From Escherichia phage Envy: a stretch of 45,206 nucleotides of DNA. The notes under the pieces are model-generated. The model saw nothing but the letters and a program-made list of their open reading frames with translations, did no database searches and had not been told where the DNA came from. The stretch lies in the sequence record NC_031081.1; one strand, written 5' to 3'. This document shows positions 4,189-45,206 of this stretch, piece after piece. The position numbers were made by a program, and so were the translations under genes. Numbering within the stretch: the stretch's first letter is position 1; each line of letters begins with the position of its first letter.

Positions 4189-4463
4189 CACCAGAAGGCA
4201 AGGTGCAGCGTCACCTTATGAAACGGGTTAAAGAGGTTGGCGGATTCTGCCGAAAACTGGCATGGGAGGGGCGCGCAGGTGCGCCCGACCTGATTATTAT
4301 CATCAACGGCATAATAGTGTTCGTCGAAGTGAAGCGCCCAGGCGGAAAACCGAAGCCGCACCAGGTACGTGAACATGAGCGAATGGCCCGCCGCGGTGCT
4401 GACGTTCGCGTTATCGACAACATATCCGACTGCGATTTATTGGTTGCTGAATTGGTCGCATAG
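4185..4463 (+). CDS. VRR-NUC domain nuclease
   Basis: GAPDLIIIINGIIVFVEVKRPGGKPKPHQ matches VRR-NUC pattern; ATGA overlap with HNH stop. Confidence 0.7.
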   Translation: MTPEGKVQRHLMKRVKEVGGFCRKLAWEGRAGAPDLIIIINGIIVFVEVKRPGGKPKPHQVREHERMARRGADVRVIDNISDCDLLVAELVA

Positions 4464-4943: not shown

Positions 4944-6368
4944 ATGGCACGTTTCCGACGTCGCGAATATCAGAAGTTGATAACCGCGTTCATCCTCAAG
5001 CATAAGCGCTGCAATATTTGGGCGACAATGGGGTCGGGTAAAACCGGCGCGACCATGTGGGCGCTGAATAAAATGTTCCAGACTGGCGTCCTGTCCCATC
5101 ATGAGGACCGCGTACTGGTGCTGGCCCCGCTGCGTGTTGCGTCGGGTACATGGCCACCGGAACAGGAGAAATGGCGATTCTCATCCCTGCTGGTCGTAGA
5201 CGGCACCGGGCCGGAGAAGGACCGTATTGCGGCGCTTGAGAGCGACGCTAACGTGGTTTGTGTTAACTACGATGTGGTTGAGTGGCTGGTCGACTATTAC
5301 GGCGATGCGTGGCCCTTTACGGTCGTTGTTGCCGATGAATCGACTAAGCTGAAAGGCTATCGTAGCAAGCAGGGGAGCAAGCGCGCCCGCGCACTGGCAG
5401 CGATTGCACATAAACACGTCAAGCGCTGGATTAACCTTACCGGCACACCAGCGCCAAACGGGCTAAAAGACTTATGGGGTCAGACGTGGTTTGTCGACGG
5501 TGGCGAACGCCTCGGCAGTAGCTATAAGGCATTTACCGACCGCTGGTTCATTAGCAAGCCTGTTAAGCCTGGCAGCTTCACTATGCAGCACGCTCCGCTA
5601 AAGAACTCCGAGAAAGAGATACAACAACGTCTGTCAGATGTATCCCTCACCGTTGACGCGGCTGAATACTTCGGGTGCGACAAGCCAATCTATACGCCGG
5701 TTGTTGTGGACCTGCCGAAGAAAGCGCGCAAGATTTATGACCAGTTTGAAAGCGAGCTATTTGCAGAACTGGAAAGCGGAACAGTGGAAGCGGCGAACGC
5801 GGCGTCGAAGACAATTAAGTGCCTTCAGCTTGCATCCGGCGCTGTGTATAAGGTGGACGAAGACGGCGAACGGACCGACGAGTGGGTGAAGATTCACGAC
5901 GCGAAGCTGGACGCGCTGGAAAGTATTGTGGAGGAGTTGAACGGAGCGCCGTTGCTCGTTGCGTATCAGTATAAGCATGACCTGGCACGTCTTAAGAAGA
6001 AATTTCCGCACGGCGTTGCGTTGGGTAAAGGTAAGCAGGGCAATAAGGATATGGAAGCATGGAACAGGGGCGAGATCCCCATCATGTTTGCACACCCGGC
6101 ATCGGCGGGCCACGGCCTTAACTTGCAGGACGGCGGTCATCACCTGGCAATCTTCTCCGATACCTGGAACTTTGAGCACTTTTCGCAGATCGTTGAGCGT
6201 ATCGGGCCGGTTCGCCAGATGCAGGCCGGGCACCCTCGACCGGTATTCGTCTACATTATCCAGGCGCGCGGGACACTGGACGAACTGGTCGCGGAGCGTC
6301 GCGACAGTAAGCGAGACATTCAGGACGATTTAATGGAATACATGAAAGCTAAAAAGGCGCGCAAATGA
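4944..6368 (+). CDS. SNF2/DEAD-like superfamily 2 helicase
   Basis: Walker A MGSGKTG, DExx-like VVADES, NLTGTP; internal ATG at 4944 with RBS. Confidence 0.8.
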   Translation: MARFRRREYQKLITAFILKHKRCNIWATMGSGKTGATMWALNKMFQTGVLSHHEDRVLVLAPLRVASGTWPPEQEKWRFSSLLVVDGTGPEKDRIAALESDANVVCVNYDVVEWLVDYYGDAWPFTVVVADESTKLKGYRSKQGSKRARALAAIAHKHVKRWINLTGTPAPNGLKDLWGQTWFVDGGERLGSSYKAFTDRWFISKPVKPGSFTMQHAPLKNSEKEIQQRLSDVSLTVDAAEYFGCDKPIYTPVVVDLPKKARKIYDQFESELFAELESGTVEAANAASKTIKCLQLASGAVYKVDEDGERTDEWVKIHDAKLDALESIVEELNGAPLLVAYQYKHDLARLKKKFPHGVALGKGKQGNKDMEAWNRGEIPIMFAHPASAGHGLNLQDGGHHLAIFSDTWNFEHFSQIVERIGPVRQMQAGHPRPVFVYIIQARGTLDELVAERRDSKRDIQDDLMEYMKAKKARK

Positions 6369-7377: not shown

Positions 7378-7385
7378 TAAATTGG

Positions 7386-7414
7386 TTGCAGTACGGGATT
7401 GGTTGCATTATATT
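7386..7414 (+). promoter_or_regulatory. sigma70-like promoter (TTGCAG-17-TATATT) with two ATTGGTTGCA direct repeats
   Basis: hexamers and spacing upstream of 7461 CDS. Confidence 0.45.
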
Positions 7415-8838: not shown

Positions 8839-9350
8839 AATTACTGATTTGCGATTTGGATGGCGTTATTAACGGTTCAAGCGATGCGCGTGCCGACCTG
8901 GTTCCGGGCATAAAAACAAAATCCACCTTTTGGGCGAAGTGGCACAAAGCGCATATACGCGAAGATCTGAACATGGATATGCTGCCGCTGCTGACCATGT
9001 ACAAAGAGCAAGGCTTCGAGATCGCGTATCTGACCAACCGGCAGCGAGAATGCTGGGAGACTACCGTCGAGCAATTGGAAGTATTCCCCGTAGGCCGGTT
9101 GTTTATGCGCCACATGCTGGACGATACCCCGCCGCCAGAGTTTAAAGCGTGCGCCGTGTTCAAAATGGTCTGCTATGCGGACGTATCGGAACTGGTCATC
9201 ATTGAAGACTGCCCGAAGAACATCGCGGCCATTCGACGGGCGTGCAGCGATCTGGTCTCGAAAATTTATGCGATAAACGTTGCAAAATTTACTTGCAACC
9301 AACCTATTGGTTGCACTATAGTTAACTCGTCGGGGCGATATGGCCCCTAA
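8835..9350 (+). CDS. HAD-superfamily hydrolase-like protein
   Basis: N-terminal LICDLDGVI (HAD motif I DxDG); 3' end overlaps the next promoter. Confidence 0.55.
   Translation: MKLLICDLDGVINGSSDARADLVPGIKTKSTFWAKWHKAHIREDLNMDMLPLLTMYKEQGFEIAYLTNRQRECWETTVEQLEVFPVGRLFMRHMLDDTPPPEFKACAVFKMVCYADVSELVIIEDCPKNIAAIRRACSDLVSKIYAINVAKFTCNQPIGCTIVNSSGRYGP
9293..9322 (+). promoter_or_regulatory. sigma70-like promoter (TTGCAA-18-TATAGT) overlapping inverted repeat TGCAACCAA-ccta-TTGGTTGCA
   Basis: hexamers plus perfect 9-bp inverted repeat. Confidence 0.45.
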
Positions 9351-10536: not shown

Positions 10537-10566
10537 AAAAAGGGGCCGCATGGCCCCTTCTATTTA
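10537..10566. terminator. bidirectional rho-independent terminator between convergent genes
   Basis: AAAAAGGGGCC-gcat-GGCCCCTTCTATTTATTT. Confidence 0.65.
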
Positions 10567-12981
10567 TTTCTTCAACGCCGCGATCTCGGCCTTCAAATCC
10601 TCCACCTGCTTATTGAGATATTGAACACACCCCATCAAGTCCATTACGATCGGGTTAACGTCGATGGATGGGCGGTCCGTCATCTTCTCCCCGATCTTGT
10701 TGCCGTCTTCGTCGAGAATATCCTCGATCGGGAACTCGTGGTGCTTAACGTACTGCGGCGCAATTAACTCCGCTTCTTCGGCGATAATACCGAAGCGCTG
10801 GCGGGCCTGCTCATCATCCTTATACACGAAGTTAACAAGGCGCTGGCTGTTAATGCGGTCCATAGCTTCGCTTGCGTCCGCATCGGCAATATCTTTCTTA
10901 TACTCGCGCCCTGATGTGCCTTGCAGCGCGATAGTCCCCGATGCGGTAGTCGGGAAGTTAAGCATAATTTCGCCGGTACGGTTCCCATCCTTACGTCGCA
11001 TAAACAGGCGAAAATGTCGAGTGCCGCTCTTGTCTAGTGCCGGTTCGAAGAACGTCCTACCGCCTACGACGTCGTTCGGCACGGTTTCGCCTACGGTGTA
11101 GTACGGTTCGAATGCAAATTGCAGGTAAGACCCGCGGCTTACTGCCAGGCTACCAACGACATCTGACCCTGAACTGTTCACCGTAAACTTGCCCGGCAAG
11201 GTCATCTCGCCTTTGGTGTTAAAGTCGATGCCTGAACTCTGCGCCGTCTCCAGGTTAGTGATCGCCAGGCGGGCGTAAGTCTCACCGTCGATATTCGCAC
11301 GGACGCGCAGCTTTGCTTCCGAGTGTAAAGAAGTGCCAACACGATATTCAGACACAATGCTTCCGCCGTCTGCCGTAGTGCCCGCTGGCGGTTTAGTGGC
11401 GTCGCCGTTGATTACCGACCACGACGTATTAGCGGCGGCGAATCCGCCTGACGCTCGAATAACCCACACGCCCATGAAGTTATTGGGGCGCAACTCCGAT
11501 ACGGTCCGGCCATAGATCGCGTTGACCTTCGAGGCGTCCATGTTAATGATGCCGTAGGAGACTGCGCCGTTACCAACAGGTAGGTTGCCTGGCGACCGAT
11601 ATTGCGAAGCCGCTCCACCAGCCCCGTGGAACGCGCCACTTTCATGGTTGATAATACTTGCGGCCCCGCCGCCGTGTAATTCGACGCGGCCTGTGATGTT
11701 AGGTGCTCCTGATTCGTAGATATACCCATCGTTGCCACTTTGCCCGCCGTCGCCCCTGCCGAACAAGCCGAATATGGACCCAGGCTGAACGCCATTACGG
11801 TCCGGCACTCGGAAGGTAGTTGTGCCGTCACCCGTAGAATACTTTCCGCGCTGATTTGGGTTTGCCAGCCAGGTCTCGTCACTAATTGGCGACAGCATTT
11901 GCGCATACGCCCAAAGCTCAGGCCAATCAGCTCGGTTTAACAATTGACCGTCGGACACCACTTCGTAAGGTTGAATATACGCGCGGCTGTCCCGTAAATG
12001 GAAATCACCTACGCCATAGTTCATGACGCCGTTCATTGTAGGGCCGACAGTGCCGGTGTTGATCAGATTCTGCACCCAGCGCTTTGTCGTGGCGTCGTAG
12101 TCACCAACAGGGTCGCCAGCCAGTGGTGTTGCCCCGTCCGGGCGAACGTTAAGCCAGGCTTGCGGTTTGTCGGTGAGTCCCGCCAGGTTGCCTGATTTTG
12201 TTAGCAAGTTATCCGCGTTAACGCTTTGCGCCCACTCCTCGGCCTGATCGCGGAATCCCTGCGCGGCTGTGCTGGCAGCTTGCGCGTCCGTCTTCGCGGT
12301 GTTGGCCTCGTCCCTCATAACGCCGGTGTCAGTCTTGATCTGGTTCGTCTGGTCTTTGATGGCCTGCGTATCAGTCTTAATCTGGTCCGTCTGCGTCTTG
12401 ATGGTATTGGTGGCGTCGTGGATAGCCTGCGTATCCGCCTTAATCTGGTCAGTCTGCGTCTTGATTGTATTGGTATCGTTTTTGAAGCCTTCGGCCTCAT
12501 CCCGAAATCCTTGCGCTGCGGATTTCGATGCTTCGGCTTGCGCTGCGAGGTCGCGCATCTCAACGGGGTCTACGTTCTTAAGCAATTCCGACAGGTATCC
12601 CCATGACATTCCCTGCATGACTTGCCCGTTAGGTAGCGTCACGGTGATTTCTTCAGCGTCGCCGAAGATTGCACGCCAGTTGTTTTCATCTGCGATCATC
12701 AATCGCAACGCTTTCTGTGCCTGTACGGTAACGCCCATCGTTGCCAGCGACATGGTATCGCGCTTAACACCATCCCAAGCAAGGCCGGTTGCCGTTGGGC
12801 CGTCGAACGGCAACACTAGCGTAAGCGCCGTGTTACTTTCGATTGATGCGATCGCCACTGTGTAAGGCACTTGTCCTACCACCAGCGTTAAGAAGTCGCC
12901 AGCTTTAAACGCGGTAAACGTTGTGCCGACTCCTACTACCGCCGTGCTATTGTTCGTTACGGATAGCGTACCCGCTGCCAT
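10564..12981 (-). CDS. tail fiber protein with C-terminal intramolecular chaperone (peptidase S74-like)
   Basis: about 805 aa from ATG at 12981 (GAGGA RBS); repeat-rich coiled coil, Gly-rich domain, C-terminal region typical of self-cleaving chaperone domains. Confidence 0.75.
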   Translation of the reverse strand: MAAGTLSVTNNSTAVVGVGTTFTAFKAGDFLTLVVGQVPYTVAIASIESNTALTLVLPFDGPTATGLAWDGVKRDTMSLATMGVTVQAQKALRLMIADENNWRAIFGDAEEITVTLPNGQVMQGMSWGYLSELLKNVDPVEMRDLAAQAEASKSAAQGFRDEAEGFKNDTNTIKTQTDQIKADTQAIHDATNTIKTQTDQIKTDTQAIKDQTNQIKTDTGVMRDEANTAKTDAQAASTAAQGFRDQAEEWAQSVNADNLLTKSGNLAGLTDKPQAWLNVRPDGATPLAGDPVGDYDATTKRWVQNLINTGTVGPTMNGVMNYGVGDFHLRDSRAYIQPYEVVSDGQLLNRADWPELWAYAQMLSPISDETWLANPNQRGKYSTGDGTTTFRVPDRNGVQPGSIFGLFGRGDGGQSGNDGYIYESGAPNITGRVELHGGGAASIINHESGAFHGAGGAASQYRSPGNLPVGNGAVSYGIINMDASKVNAIYGRTVSELRPNNFMGVWVIRASGGFAAANTSWSVINGDATKPPAGTTADGGSIVSEYRVGTSLHSEAKLRVRANIDGETYARLAITNLETAQSSGIDFNTKGEMTLPGKFTVNSSGSDVVGSLAVSRGSYLQFAFEPYYTVGETVPNDVVGGRTFFEPALDKSGTRHFRLFMRRKDGNRTGEIMLNFPTTASGTIALQGTSGREYKKDIADADASEAMDRINSQRLVNFVYKDDEQARQRFGIIAEEAELIAPQYVKHHEFPIEDILDEDGNKIGEKMTDRPSIDVNPIVMDLMGCVQYLNKQVEDLKAEIAALKK
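12290..12500. repeat. about 33-bp periodic direct repeats inside tail fiber gene (encode TQTDQIKTDTQAIKD-type heptad repeats)
   Basis: repeated GTCTTGATCTGGT/CGTCTGCGTCTTGAT units. Confidence 0.55.
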
Positions 12982-13002
12982 AGCTAAATCCTCATAAATT
13001 GG

Positions 13003-13030
13003 TTGCAATCCTGGTTGAGCGGTGTAATAC
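13003..13030 (+). promoter_or_regulatory. sigma70-like promoter (TTGCAA-16-TAATAC) for the lipoprotein gene, preceded by ATTGGTTGCA
   Basis: hexamers upstream of AGGAGA RBS and ATG 13062. Confidence 0.45.
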
Positions 13031-19868: not shown

Positions 19869-20503
19869 CTTACGAATCCAATAGCAGTCTTAAGGGTGGC
19901 GGACACCGTTGCCGTGTAGTGCCCGTTGTCTGTGTACGACAAGCTCGAACGCTCGACCACGAATAAACCTGTTTCGCCATCCGGCGCGGTGACAACAAAC
20001 GGTTTGACGAAGTGCCCGCGAAGGAAGTTGTAAACCAGTTTAGGGTTGCACCACTTGTCAGTAGTCAGTCCGATGAATTGCACGGGGAACTGTTTCGTTT
20101 CGGCGTTCGGGCCGTCCGCGATGTTCTGACCGTAACCGTTACCAAACTGCAATTCCTCGGACCGGAAAGCCAACTGCACGTCTCCGCCACCTTGCAATTG
20201 CATGTGCCAGTAATAGGGCCATTCGTTTGATCGCGGGTCGTGCGCTTCGATTAGCTCATAAGCTGCACCGGCTTTTGTCGGTCCGGCCCAGTTATCCGCC
20301 AGGGTGATGACGGTGTTAGAGTTGAATGCCGCAATTTTTCCGGTGTAGTCGTTGCCGTCGATGCGGGTAAATACGCGGACCTTCCCGATCTCGCTCAAGA
20401 ACGCGGTTCCCACGCCTGTGATGGTCTTACTTCCCTTAGTTAGTGTGATTGTACCTTGCGCCATAAAAAAGCCCCCACGTTGTAGTGAGGGCCATTTTAT
20501 CAT
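19865..20503 (-). CDS. minor tail protein (lambda gpM-like)
   Basis: FGNGYGQ resembles gpM FGDGYSQ; ATGA overlap with tape measure stop (alternative start 20464). Confidence 0.6.
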   Translation of the reverse strand: MIKWPSLQRGGFFMAQGTITLTKGSKTITGVGTAFLSEIGKVRVFTRIDGNDYTGKIAAFNSNTVITLADNWAGPTKAGAAYELIEAHDPRSNEWPYYWHMQLQGGGDVQLAFRSEELQFGNGYGQNIADGPNAETKQFPVQFIGLTTDKWCNPKLVYNFLRGHFVKPFVVTAPDGETGLFVVERSSLSYTDNGHYTATVSATLKTAIGFVR

Positions 20504-23142
20504 CGTTTGTAAAGTACACCACCCGGTTTCGTCGCCTTCACGATCTCGGCCTTGACCGACTCGGTGATTTGCTTTCCGAACGCCTGCGCGGTGCGCGGGT
20601 CTGGACCGCTAACACTGGTATCCGTCTTACCGGTCCCCATGTTAACGTTGGTCGTTACAATCATTCCCCCGACACCGCCTGCCGCGGCAACGCCAAGTTT
20701 ACCGTCTGGCCCGCGCTTAAGCGGCATGATGGCCTCGGGGCCAGCCTCCCCCATCAATCCTGCGCCCTTAGCGAACGCCTGGACGCCATAACTGAAAAAG
20801 GTGGGCTGGCTTACCACTTGCCCCGAATAGGCCGCGAGGTTGCCCCCTGCGTACGCTCCGCCGTCCGCATTCTTAGTGAGGCCGGAGAAAATAGCGCCGA
20901 ACAATCCGTTTTTGCCGCCGTCACCGCCGAAAGCGCTAACGATGGACTTGAACGCCTGCGAGGTAGCCAGCTTTATTAATTCGCTCAGAATGGACTTAAC
21001 CATATCTTTTGCGTTCAGCTTGCCAGTCTCGAAAAACTCGTTCATCGTGTCCTGCATAGCGCCGAACGTGAATTTTGTGAGTGACGTCATCTGCGTATAG
21101 CCGTTACCCATTTCATCAACACTATCCTTAAGCCCGCGGCTGAAGCCATCCCATAGCGAGGCGTTAGCACCGGTCTGTGCTTCCTGCACTTCGCGCAGCT
21201 TAGACACCGCCAGATCAATATCGGTATCGTTAGCGCCCACCCGCTTCAGGCGATCAATTAGCTGCAATTCTTCGCGCAGGTTAGCCGCTTCGCGAGTGGA
21301 AAGCGCATATCCCGCCGCGGTGGCTTTTAGCTCGGCGTTCTGGTTCTTGATGAATGCATCGACCTGGGCGTGTGCTTTGATCTGCTTCTCTTTCGCGTCC
21401 AGCAATTTGGCTTCTTCGACGATCTGCTCGCGTACCGATTTAACCGCCTCGAACGCCGCCGTTTGCTGCTTTTCTGCTGCCGTGAGTGCGCGCTCCTTGC
21501 TCGCGGTGATTAACTGCTCATTATCGGCAATCAGCTTGTTCAGGGACGCTTGCGCGCGTTGCGTGCGGGTCTGCGTCGATGCGTTGGCTTCGATCTGCTT
21601 TCCAGACTCACGAAGCTGGGCTAATTCGCTTCGCGCGACTTCCAGCATTTTCAGCCCGGCATCGACTCGAACTGCCGCCGCTTTCTTCGGCGCGGGGTCT
21701 TTGTAACGCTCGTTGACCTGCTTCACCGCCTCGGCTAGTTCTTTCTCGTTAATAACACCGCGCATATTCAGCAAATTTAGGCGGGCGATCTCGTCGGCTC
21801 GCCGCTTCGCGTTGGTTGCGTACTCCTTCTCAAACGCGGCGCGGTCGCGGGCGGCGCGGTTTGCCTCCTCGTTCGCCTTTGCTGCTTCATCCGCGGCGCT
21901 GGCGCTGTCTCGCTCGGCACGGTTGCGAAGGGTGAGCGACGCTACTACCTTTTCCTGGGCGACCAGTTCGCTGTAAAGCATGTTAATACGCGCTTTCTGC
22001 GCTTCGGTCATCACCCCACCGGCAGCGTTTACCGCCCTCATCTCGGCATAGTACGCCGTGGTCATGCGCTGCAAGGACTCACGCGCTTTCATCTCGGACT
22101 CATTCGAGGACTGCGCGCGGCCCACATCCAGGATGGCATCCCACATAGATTTAGCTGCCGATGTAACTACGTTCATCGACCGCTCAAGCGTACCCATGTT
22201 GGACTTTACCTCATCGGTCATGCTGGAGAACGACGCAGCGGCTGTTTTGTTAGCCAGAGCAACCGCGTCCGTTTCACGACCCATATCTACAAGCGATTGC
22301 ACCTGCTGGATCTGCGCCTCGGTAACGACATGATACTTATCCGCCAGCGCACGCAGTCCGCCCACTGGGTCGTTCGACAATTTTGAGATGGATTCAACCA
22401 CGTCAGAGATCGGCTGATTAGACGCCTTCGCAAAGTCATTCACCACTTTCGCCAGCGTTCCGAAGTCTGCACCTGCTTTCACCCCCGCCGCCGCCAGCGC
22501 CTGGATTGTGTCACGCGTCTTGCGGAACGACCCGCCCATGCGCTCGGCGTTCTCGGATAGCACCAGGATCTGGTTTGCCGTTAGGCCGGAAATGTTACCT
22601 GACAGCGCCAGCGTCTTGTTAAGCGCTGAGACCTGGTTCTCTGCGCGGGACGTAATTGCCACCCCTACGCCTAAAGTTGCCGTTAGTGCTGCAATGCCGA
22701 TCCCTACCGGACCGAGGACGCCCGCGACATAACGCAGCGTGTTACCAAATCCCCCGAACGCCCCAGTAAGCTGTGGTAACTGCTGAAGCATAACGCGGTG
22801 CACCGGCATACCCATCTCAAGCGTTACCGCAATATCCTGTAACTGGAATGCGGCGTTGCGTGAGGCAAAGCCCAGGTTTTTGGTCGACATGCCTAACCTG
22901 TTGGCAAGCCGCTCCTGTTTCGTCATACCGTCGGCGGCGCGCTGCGATTCGTTCGCCAGCTTTTCCATTCCGCCCGCGGCGTCACTCGTCACCTTTTTGG
23001 ATTTGCCGAGGGTGTCGTTTAATTTCTTAACCTTGTTTTCTGTGTTCTCGGATTTCTGTGCGAACGAGTCCAGCACAGTATTTGCCGTTCTGATTTGTGC
23101 AACATCCGCCTTTAGCGTGATGCCTGCTGCCTGATCTGCCAT
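20500..23142 (-). CDS. tail tape measure protein
   Basis: 880 aa, coiled-coil rich with Gly-rich C-terminus; after chaperone G/G-T and before M-like gene. Confidence 0.85.
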   Translation of the reverse strand: MADQAAGITLKADVAQIRTANTVLDSFAQKSENTENKVKKLNDTLGKSKKVTSDAAGGMEKLANESQRAADGMTKQERLANRLGMSTKNLGFASRNAAFQLQDIAVTLEMGMPVHRVMLQQLPQLTGAFGGFGNTLRYVAGVLGPVGIGIAALTATLGVGVAITSRAENQVSALNKTLALSGNISGLTANQILVLSENAERMGGSFRKTRDTIQALAAAGVKAGADFGTLAKVVNDFAKASNQPISDVVESISKLSNDPVGGLRALADKYHVVTEAQIQQVQSLVDMGRETDAVALANKTAAASFSSMTDEVKSNMGTLERSMNVVTSAAKSMWDAILDVGRAQSSNESEMKARESLQRMTTAYYAEMRAVNAAGGVMTEAQKARINMLYSELVAQEKVVASLTLRNRAERDSASAADEAAKANEEANRAARDRAAFEKEYATNAKRRADEIARLNLLNMRGVINEKELAEAVKQVNERYKDPAPKKAAAVRVDAGLKMLEVARSELAQLRESGKQIEANASTQTRTQRAQASLNKLIADNEQLITASKERALTAAEKQQTAAFEAVKSVREQIVEEAKLLDAKEKQIKAHAQVDAFIKNQNAELKATAAGYALSTREAANLREELQLIDRLKRVGANDTDIDLAVSKLREVQEAQTGANASLWDGFSRGLKDSVDEMGNGYTQMTSLTKFTFGAMQDTMNEFFETGKLNAKDMVKSILSELIKLATSQAFKSIVSAFGGDGGKNGLFGAIFSGLTKNADGGAYAGGNLAAYSGQVVSQPTFFSYGVQAFAKGAGLMGEAGPEAIMPLKRGPDGKLGVAAAGGVGGMIVTTNVNMGTGKTDTSVSGPDPRTAQAFGKQITESVKAEIVKATKPGGVLYKR

Positions 23143-23205
23143 TATGCAGTCCCCTTTTTTATGCAGTTGCCGATTGACATTGTATCAGCGAATTTAAAAC
23201 AAACC

Positions 23206-23535
23206 TTATTCAGTCTCAGACGAGGGGGGCCATTGACCCCCGTCTAGTCTGAAAGACTGGGCTTTGTCCCGCCTGTCCCGATCGGCTAAACCCCGCGGCA
23301 GCACTGGCGGGGCGGGGGTGCTGTCCCGCTTTGTCCCGCCCCTTGTTTGTCCCGCTTTTTGTCCCGTTTGGTTTATGCAGTAAAACTGAATAGGTATGCG
23401 CTTTTCAGAGGGGTGCCAGATCGGGACGTCCCGCTTGTCCCGCTTTTAGTTTATGCAATAATAGTAAATAAGTATGCAGTTTTTGAGGGGCGGGACAAAA
23501 CGGGACGTCCCGCTTGTCCCGCTTCATTATGCGGG
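23206..23535. repeat. noncoding element copy A: conserved hairpin, GTCCCGC iterons (8 or more), palindrome GGGACGTCCC, three AT-rich TTTATGCA units
   Basis: first ~58 bp and a ~53-bp iteron block identical to copy B at 39428..39625. Confidence 0.8.
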
Positions 23536-24218
23536 GTTTTGTTGCGCCATTTCATCAAGCGCGATTCGCTCCATTAGCTTGATATCTTTAAACGCTCGCT
23601 GCTCGTTTTCGACACCGTGCATCTTAAATAACCACTCCAGCACGCCGTAGTCGATGCCGTATGCGCCACCAAATCCGGTGCGCCATTGCGTGGAGCAATC
23701 TGTGAAGACTGCGACTACCTTCGCGTTGTCAGGCCATAGCGCAACAGGCGGACAAACATCTTCGGGGGCCGCACCCCATAAACTTGCGGCTAAATCTTCG
23801 GAGGGTGGCGGCGGGCCATAAAAGCGTCGCGCCGCCTCAATTAGTTTTTTTCACGCAATCCCATCAGTTCAAGATAGTACGACGTGTGGAACACCCCGAA
23901 CGCGCGCGGATAGTTTACCACCAGGCGGCGGACGTTCTCCGCGTTAAATTCGTCTGGCAGATTCCAGCCTTCTGCGACGTGCATGATGGCCTCGACCATA
24001 ACGTTAAAGCCGTCCGGGTCATTGTCGTCATATTCCGACAACTTTCGTTCGGTGTCCTGCATGGTTTGCGAAAATTCGTCGATCGGGCGGTGGCGCACGG
24101 TAAACGTCATTTTTCCCGGTTCGTTTTCACCGGGGCGCGGGATCTCAATCGGCAGCTTAAAGGTCGGCTTAGGGTCAAGTGTGAAGAGTGGTGCTTTTGC
24201 CATTGTAGTATTCTCCAA
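23527..24218 (-). CDS. tail assembly chaperone -1 frameshift fusion (G-T-like)
   Basis: slippery heptamer A_AAA_AAC at about 23844-23850 before G stop; -1 frame stays open about 92 codons to about 23527. Confidence 0.5.
23841..24218 (-). CDS. tail assembly chaperone (gpG-like)
   Basis: 125 aa acidic protein between major tail and tape measure genes. Confidence 0.7.
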   Translation of the reverse strand: MENTTMAKAPLFTLDPKPTFKLPIEIPRPGENEPGKMTFTVRHRPIDEFSQTMQDTERKLSEYDDNDPDGFNVMVEAIMHVAEGWNLPDEFNAENVRRLVVNYPRAFGVFHTSYYLELMGLREKN

Positions 24219-29086: not shown

Positions 29087-29116
29087 TTGCAATCCTCGTA
29101 TTGGTTGCACTATATT
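29087..29116 (+). promoter_or_regulatory. sigma70-like promoter (TTGCAA-18-TATATT) followed by operator-like palindrome TTGGT-tgcac-ACCAA (29116-29130)
   Basis: -10 plus leader shares about 23 identical nt with promoter at 39245..39273. Confidence 0.5.
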
Positions 29117-29145
29117 GGTTGCACACCAACAACGAGGACACACAA

Positions 29146-32976: not shown

Positions 32977-34362
32977 TTAGTAGAAGTCTACAGTTGGAAC
33001 AACGGCGATCGGACGAATCACTGGGAACAGGTGCGCAATTGGATAGCCCGCGGCATCGTTCATGTGGTCCACACCGGCGGTTTTATCCGGCTCGCCTTTC
33101 TTCAGGTCGTAGACCTGCTGTTCCAGACATTTCGCTAGTGTAGGGCATTTATCCAGGTTGACAAAATACTGGCGCACGCCCTTCGAGTTGCACATCATCG
33201 TATTCATCGCGATCAATCGGTCTTTCACGGGAGGGTTAACGCTGTCATACTCCACCTCGAAGCCCGCGTCTTCCAGTTGCGCGATATCGGACGACGATGC
33301 GTTGACAGTCTTGCGAGACTTGCCGCTGCTATCCGGGTAAACAACAACACGACCGGCAGCACAATGATCGGGGTATCGCTCCTCGATCGCCTCAATCATA
33401 GCCGGGGTATCAAACAGGTCCACAAATTCATCCACTGCGTGAATCTCGTCGCGGAACTCCTTGTTTTCGGTGATGCGCTGCCGTCTGACGTACACGACCG
33501 CCGCCATTTTCGTGACGTTAAAGTCCATACCGATAATCAGCGTGTCGTCCGGCTGCACTTCTTCGGTGCTGGCGTTCTCCTCGCGGTTGAACATCTTGTA
33601 CACCGCGCCCGACGTAAGGTTAACAAACAGGCCGTTCAGGTACGCATCAATCAGGTTAGCCGGGTACTGACTGCGCAGCGTGTCGATAAAGTCTGCCGGT
33701 AGATGGTGGTTGTCGGTGGTCTTCGCCCGGATCAGGCGCTTTTGGCTATCCTTCTCCACCTCGAAGATTTGATACATCGCCCGGTAGCCTTCAGGCGTTG
33801 ACACGATGACGAACTGGCGGACGAAGCCCGCACGCAGACGACCGAGCAATTTGTGATACGCCGCCAGCGCGACGTCTTGCTTAGTAGTGTCGAATTCATC
33901 GGCGACAATCCATGCGGCGTTGACCCCGATCAGGCGGGTATAGTTCTCCATTGATTCACAGATAACGCGGGTCCATTTCCCTTTCACCAGCACGCTATAA
34001 ATCTTGTCCTGCTTATTGAACTTCCACCGGAATCCAGCCTCGTCGAATGCCTTCTCCAGTTCCGGATACATGATTTTAACCAGGAGCGGAATAGTCGGTT
34101 CTGTAACGATGCCGTCATGCCCTGGGTTCAGGGTTAAAAGCTGGATGACCTTACGCGCAGCGACCCACGACTTTCCACCGCCGAAGCCGGAACACAGGCC
34201 GAGGATTTTAGTCTTCGTGTCCCGCAGTAGTTCGACCTGGTGCGGCAGGCAATCAGGCTGGTAAAGACGCACCGCCTGCGCAACGCGTGTCGGGCGCGGT
34301 GGTCGGTTGCGCTTTGCAATCGCGCGCTCAAGTGCGCGGTGTTCTGCCGCATAGTTACGCAT
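32977..34362 (-). CDS. terminase large subunit
   Basis: 461 aa; Walker A-like GFGGGKS; C-terminal nuclease-like region; TAATG coupling with TerS. Confidence 0.9.
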   Translation of the reverse strand: MRNYAAEHRALERAIAKRNRPPRPTRVAQAVRLYQPDCLPHQVELLRDTKTKILGLCSGFGGGKSWVAARKVIQLLTLNPGHDGIVTEPTIPLLVKIMYPELEKAFDEAGFRWKFNKQDKIYSVLVKGKWTRVICESMENYTRLIGVNAAWIVADEFDTTKQDVALAAYHKLLGRLRAGFVRQFVIVSTPEGYRAMYQIFEVEKDSQKRLIRAKTTDNHHLPADFIDTLRSQYPANLIDAYLNGLFVNLTSGAVYKMFNREENASTEEVQPDDTLIIGMDFNVTKMAAVVYVRRQRITENKEFRDEIHAVDEFVDLFDTPAMIEAIEERYPDHCAAGRVVVYPDSSGKSRKTVNASSSDIAQLEDAGFEVEYDSVNPPVKDRLIAMNTMMCNSKGVRQYFVNLDKCPTLAKCLEQQVYDLKKGEPDKTAGVDHMNDAAGYPIAHLFPVIRPIAVVPTVDFY

Positions 34363-34913
34363 TATTCACCCTGGCCTTTACCGGTAGGTTCGACAACGAC
34401 GTCGCCGTTATCATCTTCGTCGTCATCCAGCGGTACATCGTCGCGGACGCCGTGGTTTGCTTTAAGCAGGAACGTAGCGAAGCCCGCCGCGATGGTTACG
34501 CCGCCAGCTTCCATCAGGAAAGTTTTCTGCAACTCCATTGCGTCCGCCATCGCCTCGGCAAACTCCTCATGCGCACGCGCCCAGCGATACAAGCAAGCTA
34601 CGCCCACGCCGATTTCAGCGGCAAATCGGCCGAAGGTTGGCATTTTGTTCCGGGGGATTACTTGCGCAGCGCCTTTATCGGAGTAGTTGACCTGCCATGC
34701 GTCGGCGTCGGCAAAATAGCGGCGAAGCTGGTCGCAGTAAACGGATCGGTAGTCAGTAGGGCGTCCACATTTGCCGCCTTTACGGCGCTTTCCGTACTCG
34801 ATTTCAGGTCCGAGATTGGTGTGCTCGGTTTGCTCGCCTGGTTTACGGCGAGGGGTTACTGCTACTCGTCCGTCCAGTTTGGCGCGTCGGCCCTTAACTT
34901 TAATTTCTGCCAT
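34362..34913 (-). CDS. terminase small subunit
   Basis: about 183 aa from internal ATG (MAEIKV...); KMPTFGRFAAEIGVGVACLYRWARAH helix-turn-helix typical of TerS; acidic tail. Confidence 0.6.
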   Translation of the reverse strand: MAEIKVKGRRAKLDGRVAVTPRRKPGEQTEHTNLGPEIEYGKRRKGGKCGRPTDYRSVYCDQLRRYFADADAWQVNYSDKGAAQVIPRNKMPTFGRFAAEIGVGVACLYRWARAHEEFAEAMADAMELQKTFLMEAGGVTIAAGFATFLLKANHGVRDDVPLDDDEDDNGDVVVEPTGKGQGE

Positions 34914-35043
34914 GATATAAGCCCTTTTGTTCATATGCGCCGACCATCGGCAACATAGGAGACGGCCCTGCCATCTAAGGGGGATTATAACAGGCACAAA
35001 AAAGCCCACCAAATCGGCAGGCTGGGAGGCTTATGGGTTGCCG

Positions 35044-38910: not shown

Positions 38911-39216
38911 TTATTTCGCAAGTAAGGCGTGTAGCTCACGCTGAGCCGTGATGCGAGCGATGTTAGTCACTGCCGTCTCTCCGATGCCAAACCGGTACGC
39001 AAGACGCTCACGGGCGAATTTCATCGCATACTCGCAGATTGCCACACGCAATGGTTCCAGTTCATCCAGGCTGACGCCCATGTTGTCGAACGCTGCAAAG
39101 ATTGCCTGCTGCGCGAACATTACAGCCTGGCGTGCGTGGTCGGCGTTGCCGTTTGTGTGCTTCGCTTCATAGAGCGCTGCGACCGCTGATGTGTAATTCC
39201 AGATTAATGCTTTCAT
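38911..39216 (-). CDS. hypothetical protein (101 aa)
   Basis: GAGGA RBS; downstream of promoter 39245..39273. Confidence 0.55.
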   Translation of the reverse strand: MKALIWNYTSAVAALYEAKHTNGNADHARQAVMFAQQAIFAAFDNMGVSLDELEPLRVAICEYAMKFARERLAYRFGIGETAVTNIARITAQRELHALLAK

Positions 39217-39244
39217 CGTTCAGTCCTCTTGTTGGTGTGCAACC

Positions 39245-39273
39245 AATATAGCAGGGCGCCAGGCAGGGTGCAA
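39245..39273 (-). promoter_or_regulatory. sigma70-like promoter (TTGCAC-17-TATATT) with palindrome TTGGT-N5-ACCAA at 39232-39246
   Basis: -10 and leader near-identical to promoter at 29087..29116. Confidence 0.5.
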
Positions 39274-39427
39274 CCAATATTAATCACGCGCATGAAAAAG
39301 TTGATCGCTATCTGCTGTGACTGCAAACCGCATTTTCACTCAGCATAATACAACCTGCATTGGTTGCCTAGTTCATCGACGACCGCACTTAGCATCATGC
39401 TGCCGTGTATTTTGCAATCCCCGGATT

Positions 39428-39625
39428 TTATTCAGTCTCAGACGAGGGGGGCCATTGACCCCCGTCTAGTCTGAAAGACTGGGGTGCTGTCCCGCTGTCC
39501 CGCTCCTCTGGAAGCCGCGCCATCCGTGGCGGGACGGGGGTGCTGTCCCGCTTTGTCCCGCCCCTTGTTTGTCCCGCTTTTTGTCCCGCTTACTTTATGC
39601 AATAAAACTGCATAACTATTCACTA
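39428..39625. repeat. noncoding element copy B: same hairpin, GTCCCGC iterons and TTTATGCA AT-rich unit as copy A
   Basis: identical ~58-bp hairpin module and ~53-bp iteron block at same relative spacing (108 bp). Confidence 0.8.
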
Positions 39626-39673
39626 TATTCACACTACACGGCAACCAATACGACCAGATAAAAACACTCAAAA

Positions 39674-39755
39674 TGGCGACCAATGCGCGCAAATTTTAAT
39701 CGTCTAGCGATATGGGAATCCCCATATTGGCGACCAATGCGCGCAAATTTTAATC
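39674..39755. repeat. two 28-bp direct repeats (TGGCGACCAATGCGCGCAAATTTTAATC) flanking palindrome ATATGGG-aatc-CCCATAT; second copy overlaps primase stop
   Basis: perfect direct repeat, period about 54 bp. Confidence 0.7.
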
Positions 39756-42014
39756 TTTTAAGTCGTCATCGGTCGCCGAAAGCGTGATGGGTATCTTCGT
39801 TTTGATGACGATATTCGACGACCCATAGATGGCCCCGGTGTGCGGATCGGTATAAAAACCGAGCACGCCGCGCTCGACCATATCGTCAATTGCCTTCGTC
39901 GATGTGCCACCTTTCGCAAGCCCAGCCTGGCGGACAATTGCCGATTTGCTGAATCCGGTATGGTCCGGGTTATCTTCCATCAGTTTTTCCAGCGCTGCAT
40001 AAAGCACTTTCTCTTTTTCGTTGCGCGGTCCTGCGGCGTTCTCTTCCTTAACTGCGGCCTTGCCAGCGGCCTTTGCCTGCTCAATGGCGAACGGTGCCAG
40101 GGCGACCGGTACGAGGTAAAGAGTCTCGTCGCGTGGCGTGGAGGCAATCGGCTTGACGTCCCATCCGGCAACCACGTCGCCGAAGTCTGGCCCGGTGCTG
40201 GTGGACTGGTGCGCCTCGAACGCTTCTGACTTGCGGAGATCCACCTTCACCTTGCACTTGAGCAGGACGAAGCCACGCGGCGCTTGCTTGATGCCGTTAC
40301 GTGCTTTTTCGTGATACAGGTTCAATTGGCCTGGCTGGTTGTCGTCCGGCTGTTCAAGGAAGAAAGCAGAATCGACAGCACCATGAAGCGCGCCGGATCC
40401 GCGTGGCGTTCGGCTTCCGTTTGCACCCTTAGCCGGGTGGTGGATGACGCCCGCACTGCCACCTGTATTTTCCGCGATGGCCTTCAGCGCTTTGACCACT
40501 TCGCCCATATCGCTGGCGTTGTTCTCGTCGAACGGTTTTGCATCGGCGGACCGCAGCGCAACAGTCTGGTTGAGTGAGTCGAACGCCACCAGGCCAACCG
40601 GCTCGCCGTTAGCGGTGCGGTTGATGAAGCTGATAACTTCACGCAAGCCGGATTTGCTGGTGATATCCCAGCCTCGTGATTGCAGATCGATAATGTGCAG
40701 CTTGTCCAGGTCGTGCTCATATTTAATCTGCAATGCTTCCTTACGCTGGTTAGAGGCTTCGCCACCTTCCGCGTCGAAATAGAAGCAATGAGACTGGACG
40801 ACCTTCGCACCGCCGAACGGAATACCGGCGGCAACCGCGCCCATTTGGCCCAGCACATAGAACGATTTACCGATGTTCGACTCGCCCGCCATATACCAGG
40901 TCGATTTAAAGTTAATCAACCCCTCGATGATCGGGTCGTGCTTACTGAACAGCGCAACCGGCTCGTTGTCCAGGTCTGCATCAGTACACACGCCGTACTC
41001 GTCGCCGTCTCCGACCGCATCAACGATATGTTCATAGCACGATTCCACTTCCTCATCGTCCAGTCCCGGAAGGATGGCGGCGATTTGCTTACGTGACATG
41101 TTGTGCGGCTCGACGTTCAGGTGGTCCGGGATCCCGATAAGACGTAGCGCCAGGTGCTGGTGTCTGTTCAGTTCCGAGCAACACTCGTTGCCGGTGTGCA
41201 TACACTTGAAACGGATCTCGCCATCCTTGACCATGATAGCCGTCGACCCTTCGCCGCTGTGCAGATGTTCGTTCGGGCACGGCACTTCATAACCGCGACC
41301 GGAAGATAACTCATCGAATCCTGCCTGGAAGCACCAGTCCAGAATGCCGTCTGCCACTGCGTCGTCGCCCTGGGTAAGCTCGCGGCGTACTTCCTCCTTC
41401 TCCACGCCCAACTTATCCGCCAGGCGAAGCAGACGACGGACGCGGGCACGCTTGCCGTAGTGGCACTTAATAACAGACTGCTGGTGTGGCAGGTACATCA
41501 GGCGGTTTGTGTCTTTCGTGCAATCGTCGAAGTCCACATCTGACAGACCAAGTTGGTGTAATAGCGCATACTGGACACGGCCCAGGTCTTCAGCCGGTAC
41601 AGGCTTGTCCGTGAGTACCAGGAATCGAGCGCAACGCGTGCCGCCTTTCAGCGGGTGGCGGTCGCCGGTTGTGGTGTGAAATACATGTTCCAGTCCCGCG
41701 TCGATGAACGCCTTACGGCAGCGGCGCAGGGTGCGGGTGTCGGTACGGTCAATATCGAAGAACAGGATCGAGCGGTCCACTGCACTGGTCTTGCGGCGCA
41801 AGCCGTCACTGGTATACGCCACGATACCATCGGCCTTACGCTTGCGGCGCGCATACTCGGCTTTATCTTCCGTTTTGTTGATATGCACCGAGGAGATTTC
41901 TTTCGCATCATTGATAAATTCGAAAAACTCTTCGGTAGTCATCTGGAAGTTTTCCGCCCTGGCTTTTTCGCCTTTTTTAGCGGGTCGTGTTACAGCGAAT
42001 TTAATCAAGCTCAT
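39750..42014 (-). CDS. DNA primase-helicase (prim-pol-like N-terminus, RecA/DnaB-like ATPase C-terminal half)
   Basis: 754 aa; LFFDIDRTD acidic motif; Cys/His cluster; Walker A GESNIGKS. Confidence 0.75.
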   Translation of the reverse strand: MSLIKFAVTRPAKKGEKARAENFQMTTEEFFEFINDAKEISSVHINKTEDKAEYARRKRKADGIVAYTSDGLRRKTSAVDRSILFFDIDRTDTRTLRRCRKAFIDAGLEHVFHTTTGDRHPLKGGTRCARFLVLTDKPVPAEDLGRVQYALLHQLGLSDVDFDDCTKDTNRLMYLPHQQSVIKCHYGKRARVRRLLRLADKLGVEKEEVRRELTQGDDAVADGILDWCFQAGFDELSSGRGYEVPCPNEHLHSGEGSTAIMVKDGEIRFKCMHTGNECCSELNRHQHLALRLIGIPDHLNVEPHNMSRKQIAAILPGLDDEEVESCYEHIVDAVGDGDEYGVCTDADLDNEPVALFSKHDPIIEGLINFKSTWYMAGESNIGKSFYVLGQMGAVAAGIPFGGAKVVQSHCFYFDAEGGEASNQRKEALQIKYEHDLDKLHIIDLQSRGWDITSKSGLREVISFINRTANGEPVGLVAFDSLNQTVALRSADAKPFDENNASDMGEVVKALKAIAENTGGSAGVIHHPAKGANGSRTPRGSGALHGAVDSAFFLEQPDDNQPGQLNLYHEKARNGIKQAPRGFVLLKCKVKVDLRKSEAFEAHQSTSTGPDFGDVVAGWDVKPIASTPRDETLYLVPVALAPFAIEQAKAAGKAAVKEENAAGPRNEKEKVLYAALEKLMEDNPDHTGFSKSAIVRQAGLAKGGTSTKAIDDMVERGVLGFYTDPHTGAIYGSSNIVIKTKIPITLSATDDDLKD

Positions 42015-42024
42015 TGCCGTTGCC

Positions 42025-42354
42025 TTACTTTGAAGTTTTATTATTGCGTACCCAGGAGCGCACTGTGCTCTGATTAATTCCGGTCAACTCGGCAATCATC
42101 GCCCAGGATTTACCTTCCTCACGTAGACGGATAACCTGTTTTTTGTATTCTTCCATTTCTTCATTGTGTTTTTGCAGCTTGCTTGCTGCCGTGCCGTTGA
42201 GCAATTCCAGCTTCGCGCGCAATTCTTTTTCGGTAAGTCGCAGACGTTCGATTTCAAATAGCACCGCACCCACGGCATCGGTATACGCCCAGGACCGGCT
42301 AGTCTCACTGCAAACAGTCTTCGTTAACATTTCGATTGCGTCGTTTACATTCAT
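42025..42354 (-). CDS. HTH DNA-binding protein, putative early regulator
   Basis: 109 aa; C-terminal HTH SWAMIAELTGINQSTVRSWV; first gene of minus operon. Confidence 0.6.
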   Translation of the reverse strand: MNVNDAIEMLTKTVCSETSRSWAYTDAVGAVLFEIERLRLTEKELRAKLELLNGTAASKLQKHNEEMEEYKKQVIRLREEGKSWAMIAELTGINQSTVRSWVRNNKTSK

Positions 42355-42531: not shown

Positions 42532-42560
42532 TTGACTCCCTTCTGCAACCAATCTAATAT
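42532..42560 (+). promoter_or_regulatory. strong sigma70-like promoter (TTGACT-17-TAATAT) for plus-strand early genes
   Basis: near-consensus hexamers, 17-nt spacer containing TGCAACCAAT. Confidence 0.55.
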
Positions 42561-42620: not shown

Positions 42621-43136
42621 ATGTTTGAACAAATCGTAAACTTGATTACTCGCGGCGTAGTAGCGCTGGAAACCATCGCTAAGCATTATGAAACCGTTGG
42701 CGCTGCCGTTGGTAAGCAGGAAGATAAAAAGCCATCTAAGGCGAAAAAAGAAGTCGTCGAAGACGACGACGATGGCGCTGAAGACGAAGCACCGGCGAAA
42801 ACCAAAAAAGCACCGGCTAAAGGTAAGGCTAAAAAAGAAGTCGTAGAAGATGACGACGACGATGCCGAAGACGAAAAACCGGCTAAGTCTAAAAAAGCAC
42901 CGGCAAAAGGCAAAGGCAAGAAAGATGCCGATCCGCTGGCAGAGATGCGCGACGAGATCAAACAGTATGCCGCGATTATTGCCGGTGGTGACGACGACGA
43001 CGCGAACGACGAATTTGACGACCTGCTGGAATCGTTCGAGATCAAATCAATCGCCAAGCTGGAAGATGAAGACGTCGAAGACTTCCACAAAGATCTTAAA
43101 GAAATCGTCGAAACTTATTTCGAACTGGAAGATTAA
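42621..43136 (+). CDS. acidic low-complexity protein with tandem 29-aa repeats
   Basis: 171 aa; repeats KKEVVEDDDDGAEDEAPAKTKKAPAKGKA x2; first gene after promoter. Confidence 0.6.
   Translation: MFEQIVNLITRGVVALETIAKHYETVGAAVGKQEDKKPSKAKKEVVEDDDDGAEDEAPAKTKKAPAKGKAKKEVVEDDDDDAEDEKPAKSKKAPAKGKGKKDADPLAEMRDEIKQYAAIIAGGDDDDANDEFDDLLESFEIKSIAKLEDEDVEDFHKDLKEIVETYFELED
42744..42917. repeat. 87-bp tandem repeat x2 inside CDS 42621..43136
   Basis: two adjacent units about 85 percent identical. Confidence 0.7.
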
Positions 43137-45045: not shown

Positions 45046-45206
45046 AGTATTCGCAATCTTATTGATGTTTGTTATCGGCGCGCTGGGCTTTATCCTGCAT
45101 TGTGTGCAAGGCGTGTTAATGGTGGCATGGATGATTAGACATCCGACCCGCTGGCTGGATGACGGCTATAGCGAAGCTGCCGTCGATTGGGTGGAGAAGA
45201 ACATCA
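45038..45206 (+). CDS. small membrane protein, 5' part (continues at 1..201 through terminal repeat)
   Basis: ATG overlapping nuclease stop; hydrophobic N-terminus. Confidence 0.45.
   Translation, partial: MNKVFAILLMFVIGALGFILHCVQGVLMVAWMIRHPTRWLDDGYSEAAVDWVEKNI
45080..45206. repeat. terminal direct repeat, identical to 1..127
   Basis: identical sequence at both window ends. Confidence 0.9.

Follow-up and report, generated by a model that had tools for sequence, protein, structure and literature searches.

Two copies of an iteron and hairpin element in Escherichia phage Envy, one beside the primase-helicase gene, as candidate replication origin modules

In satellite phage P4 the alpha protein joins a primase, an SF3/D5-like helicase and a C-terminal winged helix in one polypeptide, and the phage has an ori and a crr site. 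The lambdoid O/ori and the Staphylococcus aureus pathogenicity island (SaPI) Rep/ori systems each have a specific, fast-evolving binding partner with switching sites, and in RSF1010 the large hairpins ssiA and ssiB act in single-stranded form as primase start signals. Iteron origins beside self-loading helicases are well known, so the reading put forward here would overturn no concept. We describe a 197-nt element that occurs twice in the genome of Escherichia phage Envy (NC_031081.1), of which the whole 45,206-nt stretch was analyzed and is called the window below. Copy B lies 3′ of the primase-helicase gene, starting 125 nt past its stop codon, and copy A lies among the tail genes. With moderate confidence we read both elements as iteron-type origin modules recognized by the primase-helicase, region A being a second origin or a crr-like partner.

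The two copies lie 16.2 kb apart in direct-repeat orientation and align without gaps at 85% identity (168/197 nt; coordinates in Table 1). Two blocks are exact: the 56-nt hairpin module (23206-23261 = 39428-39483) and a 54-nt four-iteron block, CGGGGGTGCTGTCCCGCTTTGTCCCGCCCCTTGTTTGTCCCGCTTTTTGTCCCG (23313-23366 = 39535-39588). Their start-to-start spacing is 107 nt in both copies (108 when counted from GGGGG). Apart from an overlap of the window ends, exact 20-mers that occur twice in the genome come almost solely from these blocks. The original prediction had proposed that a hairpin module and a second block recur identically 16 kb apart at equal spacing, that the segment between them differs in sequence, and that there are two short-repeat sites of which one adjoins a primase-helicase; all of this is borne out, the minus-strand neighbor of copy B being the primase-helicase gene. 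Region A is flanked by the genes for a tail assembly chaperone (Pfam Phage_TAC_4, 23841-24218) and the tape-measure protein (20500-23142). The functional orientation of the element is the minus strand, which is also the gene strand in what follows.

The anatomy within the genus Dhillonvirus, to which the window phage belongs, was taken from an alignment of the A and B copies of 13 genomes. Read along the gene strand, the order is an AT-rich box, four direct CGGGACA iterons, an inverted iteron, a GC-rich spacer, two direct iterons, a hairpin of ~20 bp and copy-specific flanks. The AT-rich box carries a TTATGCA/TGCATAA inverted repeat; in copy B a conserved box, TGAATAGTTATGCA (gene strand, 39609-39622), lies with that inverted repeat inside the AT-rich patch. 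TTATGCA was tried as a DnaA box and rejected, matching only the first 7 of 9 positions and not fitting the relaxed consensus. The iteron arrays abut the lowest- and third-lowest-GC 40-mers of the genome, and the GC-rich spacers rank among its most GC-rich segments. Genome-wide enrichment of the iteron core GTCCCG is slight (35 sites in the window versus 26 +/- 4.7 expected), and 20 of the 35 sites fall within 23266-23521 and 39489-39588. Region A reaches past the coordinates given in the original prediction and has further modules of its own, with AT-rich boxes at 23368-23400 and 23444-23483, the latter being the lowest-GC 40-mer of the genome (0.20). Its extra iteron clusters, each with the palindrome CGGGACGTCCCG, lie at 23422-23442 and 23491-23521.

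Directly past the primase-helicase stop codon, relatives whose protein is 37-70% identical have the same parts in the same order. Besides Dhillonvirus, the carriers are contigs L169 and L171-L174 (67-70% protein identity), contigs L025, L027 and L030 (37-46%), phage phiEap-2 (L054) and Cornellvirus VSiP (L152); Eiauvirus eiAU-183 (L168) and Serratia phage Tsm2 (L151) have a modified form. The repeated word changes by lineage, and the number, order and orientation of the iterons do not. The word is CGGGACA in the window phage, L169 and L173, GTGGCAA in L170 and L171, GTGCCAA in L172, GGTGCCA in L174, AGGGATA in L025, TCCGACA in L027, GGGGATG in L030, ACGGACA in phiEap-2, GGGGGAGA in VSiP and CGCCCCG in eiAU-183. 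Three parts are conserved in sequence across the lineages, namely the box TGAATAGTTATGCA, the G-run/C-run apex of the hairpin, and CGGCA(G/A)C ~30 nt past the hairpin. By analogy with the lambdoid and SaPI systems, such switching of iterons is the mark left by a DNA-binding partner that is specific and evolves fast.

The second site recurs as well. Large non-coding regions are found in eiAU-183 at both places where the window has them, one past the primase-helicase gene and one in the interval from the chaperone to the tape-measure genes. They share that phage's own word, so that its second site co-switches with the first, along with a 52-nt module at 88% identity and a hairpin like that of the window, GAGACGGGGGTG...CACCCCTCGTC. 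The chaperone/tape-measure gap of eiAU-183 also holds a reverse-strand open reading frame (ORF), gp54 (L168 42367-42720). In Tsm2 the second site is weaker; it is collinear, lies in the head module and is built with that phage's own word. Two sites are thus recurrent, not universal. Scanning IMG/VR with the hairpin pattern, which was too strict, gave one match. The 14-nt box gave at least 120 matches there, nearly all due to chance, and filtering left only known relatives and phiEap-2. No complete genome of the GTGGCAA lineage was found in IMG/VR, and the 48 matches in metagenomes were all unrelated coding sequence.

Within Dhillonvirus the element is present in 157/157 records of the phage collection, and in at least two places in every complete record. 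Identities of the iteron block and hairpin were 0.93/0.91 for B-B and 0.89/0.95 for A-A comparisons. Spacer identity was 0.87 for A-A, 0.79 for B-B and 0.55 for A-B, and both the spacer and the 3′ flank were copy-specific (0.55/0.42 for A-B versus 0.79-0.91 among orthologues). Concerted evolution was considered as the cause of the A/B identity and rejected, within-genome A-B values for block and hairpin (0.90/0.94) barely exceeding between-genome A-B values (0.88/0.93). Because block and hairpin are alike in all comparisons and the spacer and flanks are copy-specific, these sequence identities indicate purifying selection on both copies rather than gene conversion.

The repeat itself is already a known annotation. 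The record of Sodalis phage SO-1 (GenBank GQ502199.1, 2009) marks two repeat regions, 'region A', with gp16 on one side and the tape-measure gene on the other, and 'region B', which follows the helicase/primase gene. Its notes speak of repeats that are direct, inverted and palindromic, say that the two regions resemble each other, and mention a 'possible' function. The SO-1 regions are orthologous to those of the window, match them in both positions, have 92% identity to copy B and are known as record annotation only. Our searches of the literature on Dhillonvirus, SO-1, SSL-2009a and Guernseyvirinae found no described origin or analysis of these regions. New in this work are the architecture traced across genera, the switching of its iterons, and a candidate for the domain that reads them.

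Table 1. Coordinates of the two elements, their parts and adjoining features in the window
Feature	Coordinates	Strand	Remarks
Region B	39217-39749	-	Whole non-coding gap from the primase-helicase stop to the next gene (38911-39216); equals 'region B' of SO-1 (SO-1 repeat_region 40178-40657); from ORF and annotation maps
Copy B of the shared 197-nt element	39428-39624	-	
Copy B hairpin	39433-39481		Long, imperfect, ~20 bp, G-run/C-run apex
Copy B hairpin-proximal iterons	39489-39502	-	Pair of direct CGGGACA iterons (gene strand)
Copy B GC-rich spacer	39503-39544		Includes inverted iteron 39530-39535; 40-mer at 39499 has GC 0.775, top 0.15% of genome
Copy B four direct iterons	39545-39588	-	Spacing 12, 16, 10 nt
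Copy B AT-rich patch	39590-39629		Third-lowest-GC 40-mer of the genome (0.225); candidate unwinding element
CGGCAGC word (gene strand)	39399-39405	-	~30 nt 3′ of hairpin; CGGCA(G/A)C in every lineage whatever the iteron word
Primase-helicase gene	39750-42014	-	AEP/PrimPol fold with Zn-finger, AAA_25 RepA-like helicase, C-terminal winged helix (~residues 665-740, window 39795-40022), acidic tail ...DDDLKD
Region A	23143-23526	-	384-nt non-coding gap between tail-chaperone genes and tape-measure gene; equals 'region A' of SO-1
Copy A of the shared 197-nt element	23206-23402	-	
Copy A hairpin	23211-23259		Identical to that of copy B
Copy A iterons	23266-23366	-	A pair (23266-23280) and a set of four (23323-23366) on either side of a GC-rich spacer, whose GC of 0.825 at 23290 is one of the highest values in the genome
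Region A-only modules	23368-23526		Two AT-rich boxes alternating with two iteron clusters
TGATACAAT (gene strand)	23179-23187	-	Extended -10-like; ~30 nt before the tape-measure ATG; in 13/13 A copies; putative promoter

The hairpin folds on both strands, and as DNA the 56-nt module has a free energy of -13.4 kcal/mol (z = -3.85 versus shuffles). Its stem is invariant across Dhillonvirus, where the apical loop alone varies (TCAATGG, TCAGCGG, TCTGGCA, TATTGT and others). Between lineages the lower stem differs yet pairs, as CAGTC/GACTG, ATCATCTA/TAGATGAT, ATCCTC/GAGGAT, TCTCC/GGAGA or GAGGAG/GTCCTC, below the conserved apex. The hairpin is kept in 9-10 lineages, with folding z-scores of -2.3 to -4.0 in 8/9. 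A MAFFT alignment of the hairpins of 11 lineages did not yield structure-consistent outer stems, and per-lineage folding z-scores were used in place of a covariation count. The strand that is not the mRNA folds the hairpin slightly better in 9/10 lineages, and the mRNA strand shows no excess of wobble pairs; this strand bias is weak evidence against an mRNA structure. Taken whole, the 200-nt element exceeds shuffles in stability by only a small margin (z = -1.9 to -3.5). An inverted copy of the lineage's own iteron sits in the hairpin loop of phiEap-2 (TGTCCG) and in that of L027 (TGTCGGA).

The spacer gave a different result. The original prediction suggested that a GC-rich stem is kept in the variable segment of roughly 35 bp between the identical blocks (CCCCGC...GCGGGG in A, CCGCGCC...GGCGGG in B). 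These stems are not maintained in the 13 Dhillonvirus genomes, and RNAalifold recovers neither. The sole consensus pairing it finds there joins the fourth direct iteron to the inverted iteron, which is an inverted repeat of a protein site.

The primase-helicase offers a candidate reader. Its N-terminal part is modeled as an AEP/PrimPol fold (predicted local distance difference test, pLDDT, 85), with the AEP domain of the cyanophage S-2L PrimPol as top match (E = 1e-5), and the DxD motif and Zn-finger of this part are invariant. The helicase part belongs to Pfam AAA_25 and is RecA/RepA-like; a PDB sequence search with the protein gave RepA (1g8y) as its sole match, a marginal one. For the C-terminal winged helix the AlphaFold2 core has pLDDT ~85, and all top Foldseek matches are winged-helix DNA-binding domains (MarR, histone H1, LexA, ORC). 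No other segment of the protein is as divergent as this domain. In it FSKS..GGT occurs with CGGGACA (two sub-clades) and FSRR..GGS with GTGGCAA, and in one of the CGGGACA sub-clades the rest of the protein is closer to that of the GTGGCAA clade. Judged from these sequences, the winged helix is a candidate for the domain that reads the iterons. The protein ends in an acidic tail (...TDDDLKD, 39750-39770) that is D/E-D-L-x-D/N in all relatives and is reminiscent of T7 gp4, whose own acidic tail contacts the polymerase. The genome has a gene for a Pol A polymerase as well, and in relatives a gp2.5-like single-stranded DNA-binding protein (SSB) is annotated; because of these three features the replisome looks T7-like.

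A second DNA-binding protein is encoded nearby. The small helix-turn-helix (HTH) protein at 42025-42354, just upstream of the primase-helicase, matches Pfam HTH_23 and Sigma70_r4_2, and its helix-turn-helix motif is almost unchanged across four iteron classes. Since the iteron word switches over the same classes, this protein cannot set iteron specificity. Another motif, GCRACCAA/TTGGTYGC (TTGGTTGC), is probably its promoter/operator motif. There are 23 such sites versus 4.3 expected, mostly as intergenic pairs in promoter-like positions (157-235, 4440-4459, 7382-7406, 9295-9314, 29101-29122, 39239-39277, 39360-39367, 39641-39737 and 42545-42552); they often overlap -35-like TTGCAx hexamers, and they flank region B on both sides. 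The word is the same in relatives with other iterons, and in lineages further removed its counterpart is CAGCCAACA.

Taken as a set, the adjacency to the gene, the switching iterons, the extreme AT-rich and GC-rich patches side by side, the hairpin conserved in structure and the winged helix on the primase-helicase are the usual anatomy of an iteron origin served by a self-loading helicase. As expected of such an origin, a cluster of one word lies in non-coding DNA by the initiator/helicase gene, likewise in more than 10 lineages, and an AT-rich segment that by its sequence is a candidate unwinding element adjoins it. From the sequence comparisons, the best explanation is that region B is the ancestral origin and region A a paralogous second origin or a cis-acting, crr-like partner. 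We infer which protein binds, that the origin fires, and what the hairpin and the second copy do, along the following lines. The C-terminal winged helix would bind the short CGGGACA repeats (four direct, one inverted, two direct). Multimerization on the iteron array would open the adjacent AT-rich patch, where the helicase could load itself. The hairpin, extruded as single-stranded DNA (ssDNA), might together with CGGCAGC mark the primase start or the position of the helicase ring. A T7-like replisome (Pol A polymerase, gp2.5-like SSB, acidic-tailed primase-helicase) would then take over.

A broader proposal, which as one joint claim we think less likely than not, is that a composite origin (box TGAATAGTTATGCA, switchable iterons, hairpin and CGGCAGC) is common to several enterobacterial siphovirus genera (Dhillonvirus, Eiauvirus, Cornellvirus-like and uncultivated ones) and is read by a self-loading fusion of AEP primase, RepA-type helicase and winged helix. 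The hairpin would then be an ssDNA start or loading signal for the AEP primase, and the tail-operon copy an obligatory looping partner that is crr-like and evolved independently.

Several observations weigh against the origin reading. The literature searched holds no experimental evidence for it in any of these phages. An origin inside a late tail operon would be unusual, and A and B, being direct repeats, form no convergent or divergent pair. GC skew tracks gene orientation, with its minimum near the divergent promoter region at 42.5 kb, ~3 kb from region B; because of this dependence on gene orientation it speaks neither for nor against B. In VSiP there is a single site, Kagunavirus and Jerseyvirus have no such gap after the primase-helicase gene, and the IMG/VR contigs L021-L023 and L028 (43-45% identity) have no iteron element after the gene, so an origin of this type, if they have one, must lie elsewhere. 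The fold-search E-values of the winged helix are weak (0.01-0.4), and its link to the iteron word is drawn from three alignment positions and from sequences, 8 close and 7 distant, that are not phylogenetically independent. A search for a plasmid replicon that uses this primase-helicase gave only a 44-kb phage-like E. coli record. As for the gene neighborhood of L021-L023 and L028, the winged helix is retained there, and ordinary terminators and reverse-strand genes follow the primase-helicase gene.

A different account, which we think unlikely, makes each element a transcription-control cassette, in which the repeats are operators of a phage regulator, the hairpin gates minus-strand read-through (at B from the primase-helicase operon into the next module, at A from the chaperone into the tape-measure and distal tail genes), and a promoter of its own follows each element. 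Both copies do lie at module boundaries inside one long co-directional minus-strand array. Copy A is followed by the extended -10-like TGATACAAT and copy B by another such sequence, TGCTATATT, with TTGCAC 17 nt upstream (TTGCAC-N17-TGCTATATT, 39245-39273, minus strand), and L025 and L027 have clear TTGACT/TTGACA-N17-TATTAT/TATTGT promoters just past the element. A promoter scan found no strong sigma-70 site in region B. Promoters commonly adjoin origins, so their presence does not discriminate. The hairpin, however, lacks a U/T run (it is followed on the gene strand by GAATAAAATCC in B and GAATAAGGTTTG in A), the terminator scan did not call it as an intrinsic terminator, and it folds better on the non-mRNA strand in most lineages. 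The HTH protein, the one obvious regulator in the vicinity and almost unchanged in its motif while the iteron word switches, fits TTGGTTGC better, and neither the tight link to the primase-helicase nor a genome-extreme AT-rich patch is expected of an operator. If the hairpin worked instead as RNA on the minus-strand transcript, as an RNase III-type processing or stabilizing hairpin like those between T7 genes or as a put-like antitermination RNA, with the repeats incidental, its conserved long imperfect structure despite differing stems and its transcribed intergenic position would fit. But Rfam 15 covariance models run on the whole window gave no match at gathering score, the stability of the whole element is only marginal, the other strand folds better, and the lineage-specific repeats, the AT-rich box and the primase-helicase adjacency are left unexplained; we rate a structured RNA as distinctly improbable.

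Were the element a pac-like site, the small terminase would bind the repeats to start headful packaging, and short-repeat arrays around a central site do resemble P1 pac. The known pac sites are located within or next to the gene for the small terminase, whereas the terminase genes here (32977-35012) are 4.4 kb from B and about 9.6-11 kb from A, and the gene to which the element is linked across lineages is that of the primase-helicase. Dhillonviruses do package by headful, as found with PhageTerm on Opt-212 (PMC9022532). The public record of eiAU-183 starts inside its region A, and that of phiEap-2 (KT287080.2; element region 5290-5884) ends ~320 nt past its iteron-hairpin element; the genome of phiEap-2 was reported as linear, not circular, from AhdI and SacI digests (PMC4913238). 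These two element-adjacent record ends and the linear-genome claim are all that keeps the packaging explanation alive, and record starts may be arbitrary or be assembly breaks at repeats, no terminus mapping placing an end there; we give it very little credence. Least credible of all, to the point of being nearly negligible, is a selfish or mobile repeat (like a miniature inverted-repeat transposable element) or a neutral duplication with gene conversion. Two copies with identical blocks in one genome are what it would leave, and pre-hairpin iteron alleles and loop variants are mosaic between the A and B copies of different phages, suggesting some exchange. Yet the positions are fixed in all 157 Dhillonvirus genomes and are the same two in Eiauvirus, terminal inverted repeats and target duplications are lacking, the flanks are orthologously conserved, and the A-B similarity reflects selection, not homogenization, as the within- and between-genome identities given above indicate.

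Some further features of the window were recorded. The minus-strand genes run from ~42354 down to 10564 (HTH protein, primase-helicase, small genes, lysis, terminase, head and tail), and the plus-strand genes from 42621 across the window end to 10536, with replication and modification functions. The 127-nt identical overlap of the window ends (1-127 = 45080-45206) is an artefact that arose in assembling a genome that is circular or circularly permuted, and the true circle or permuted unit measures 45,079 bp. A 38-nt unit, GGCGACCAATGCGCGCAAATTTTAATC..., occurs twice (39669-39706 and 39723-39760, 89% identical), straddling the primase-helicase stop codon, and each copy holds one GCGACCAA motif. 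Other repeats are coding: a tandem repeat of 21/42-nt periodicity (12290-12457) in the ORF at 10564-13008, annotated as tail fibers protein, and, at 42737-42910 and 849-980, an 87-nt duplication and acidic GAC/GAA-rich repeats in ORFs 42621-43136 and 271-1002.

Few coliphages are isolated as often as dhillonviruses (157 genomes in this comparison, and members of the BASEL collection), and the literature searched defines no replication origin for them or for Guernseyvirinae-like relatives. If the elements are origins, the primase-helicase and ~250 bp would make up a compact replicon, and the lineages compared here would be a natural series of iteron/winged-helix specificity switches in which to study the evolution of replicon specificity. 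Phage engineering would have a simple guide, which is to keep 23143-23526 and 39217-39749 undeleted.

Among described systems, the origin reading finds partial counterparts in several. The SaPI pri-rep-ori module is similar in having its origin immediately 3′ of the helicase gene, with short island-specific iterons flanking an AT-rich segment, and in its specificity, which resides in the helicase C-terminal domain and switches between related elements. It differs in its helicase family, in having primase as a separate gene, and in lacking a second copy and a conserved hairpin. Self-loading helicases have been discussed elsewhere (PMC9371898). The oriV of RSF1010/IncQ shares the order of iterons, GC-rich and AT-rich stretch and a RepA/AAA_25-type helicase; there, however, RepA, RepB′ and RepC are separate proteins, the iterons are 20-mers, and two oppositely oriented ssi hairpins stand in place of the one hairpin per element seen here. 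We found no DNA sequence similarity between the two. For the archaeal plasmid pRN1, ~166 bp downstream of the ORF904 gene are reported to be essential for replication (PMC4234260). pRN1 likewise pairs a primase-polymerase/helicase fusion that has a winged helix with a downstream origin; it has an SF3 helicase and an archaeal host, and no iteron array is described in the abstract (PMC4234260).

The original prediction likened the two sites to the ori/crr arrangement of P4, and this holds as an analogy and fails as a claim of family membership. Here too primase, helicase and C-terminal winged helix form one polypeptide, and irregularly spaced 6-8 bp repeats are grouped at two places that lie apart, one of which closely follows the 3′ end of the gene. 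The helicase, in contrast, is RecA/RepA-like AAA_25 rather than SF3/D5-like, and the primase has an AEP/PrimPol fold. The type I iterons of P4 are TGTTCACC and those here CGGGACA/TGTCCCG; the sites are 16 kb apart rather than the 4.5 kb of P4, and a long hairpin is part of each, as is a conserved AT-rich box. The resemblance to P4 in architecture is one of analogy and not of homology.

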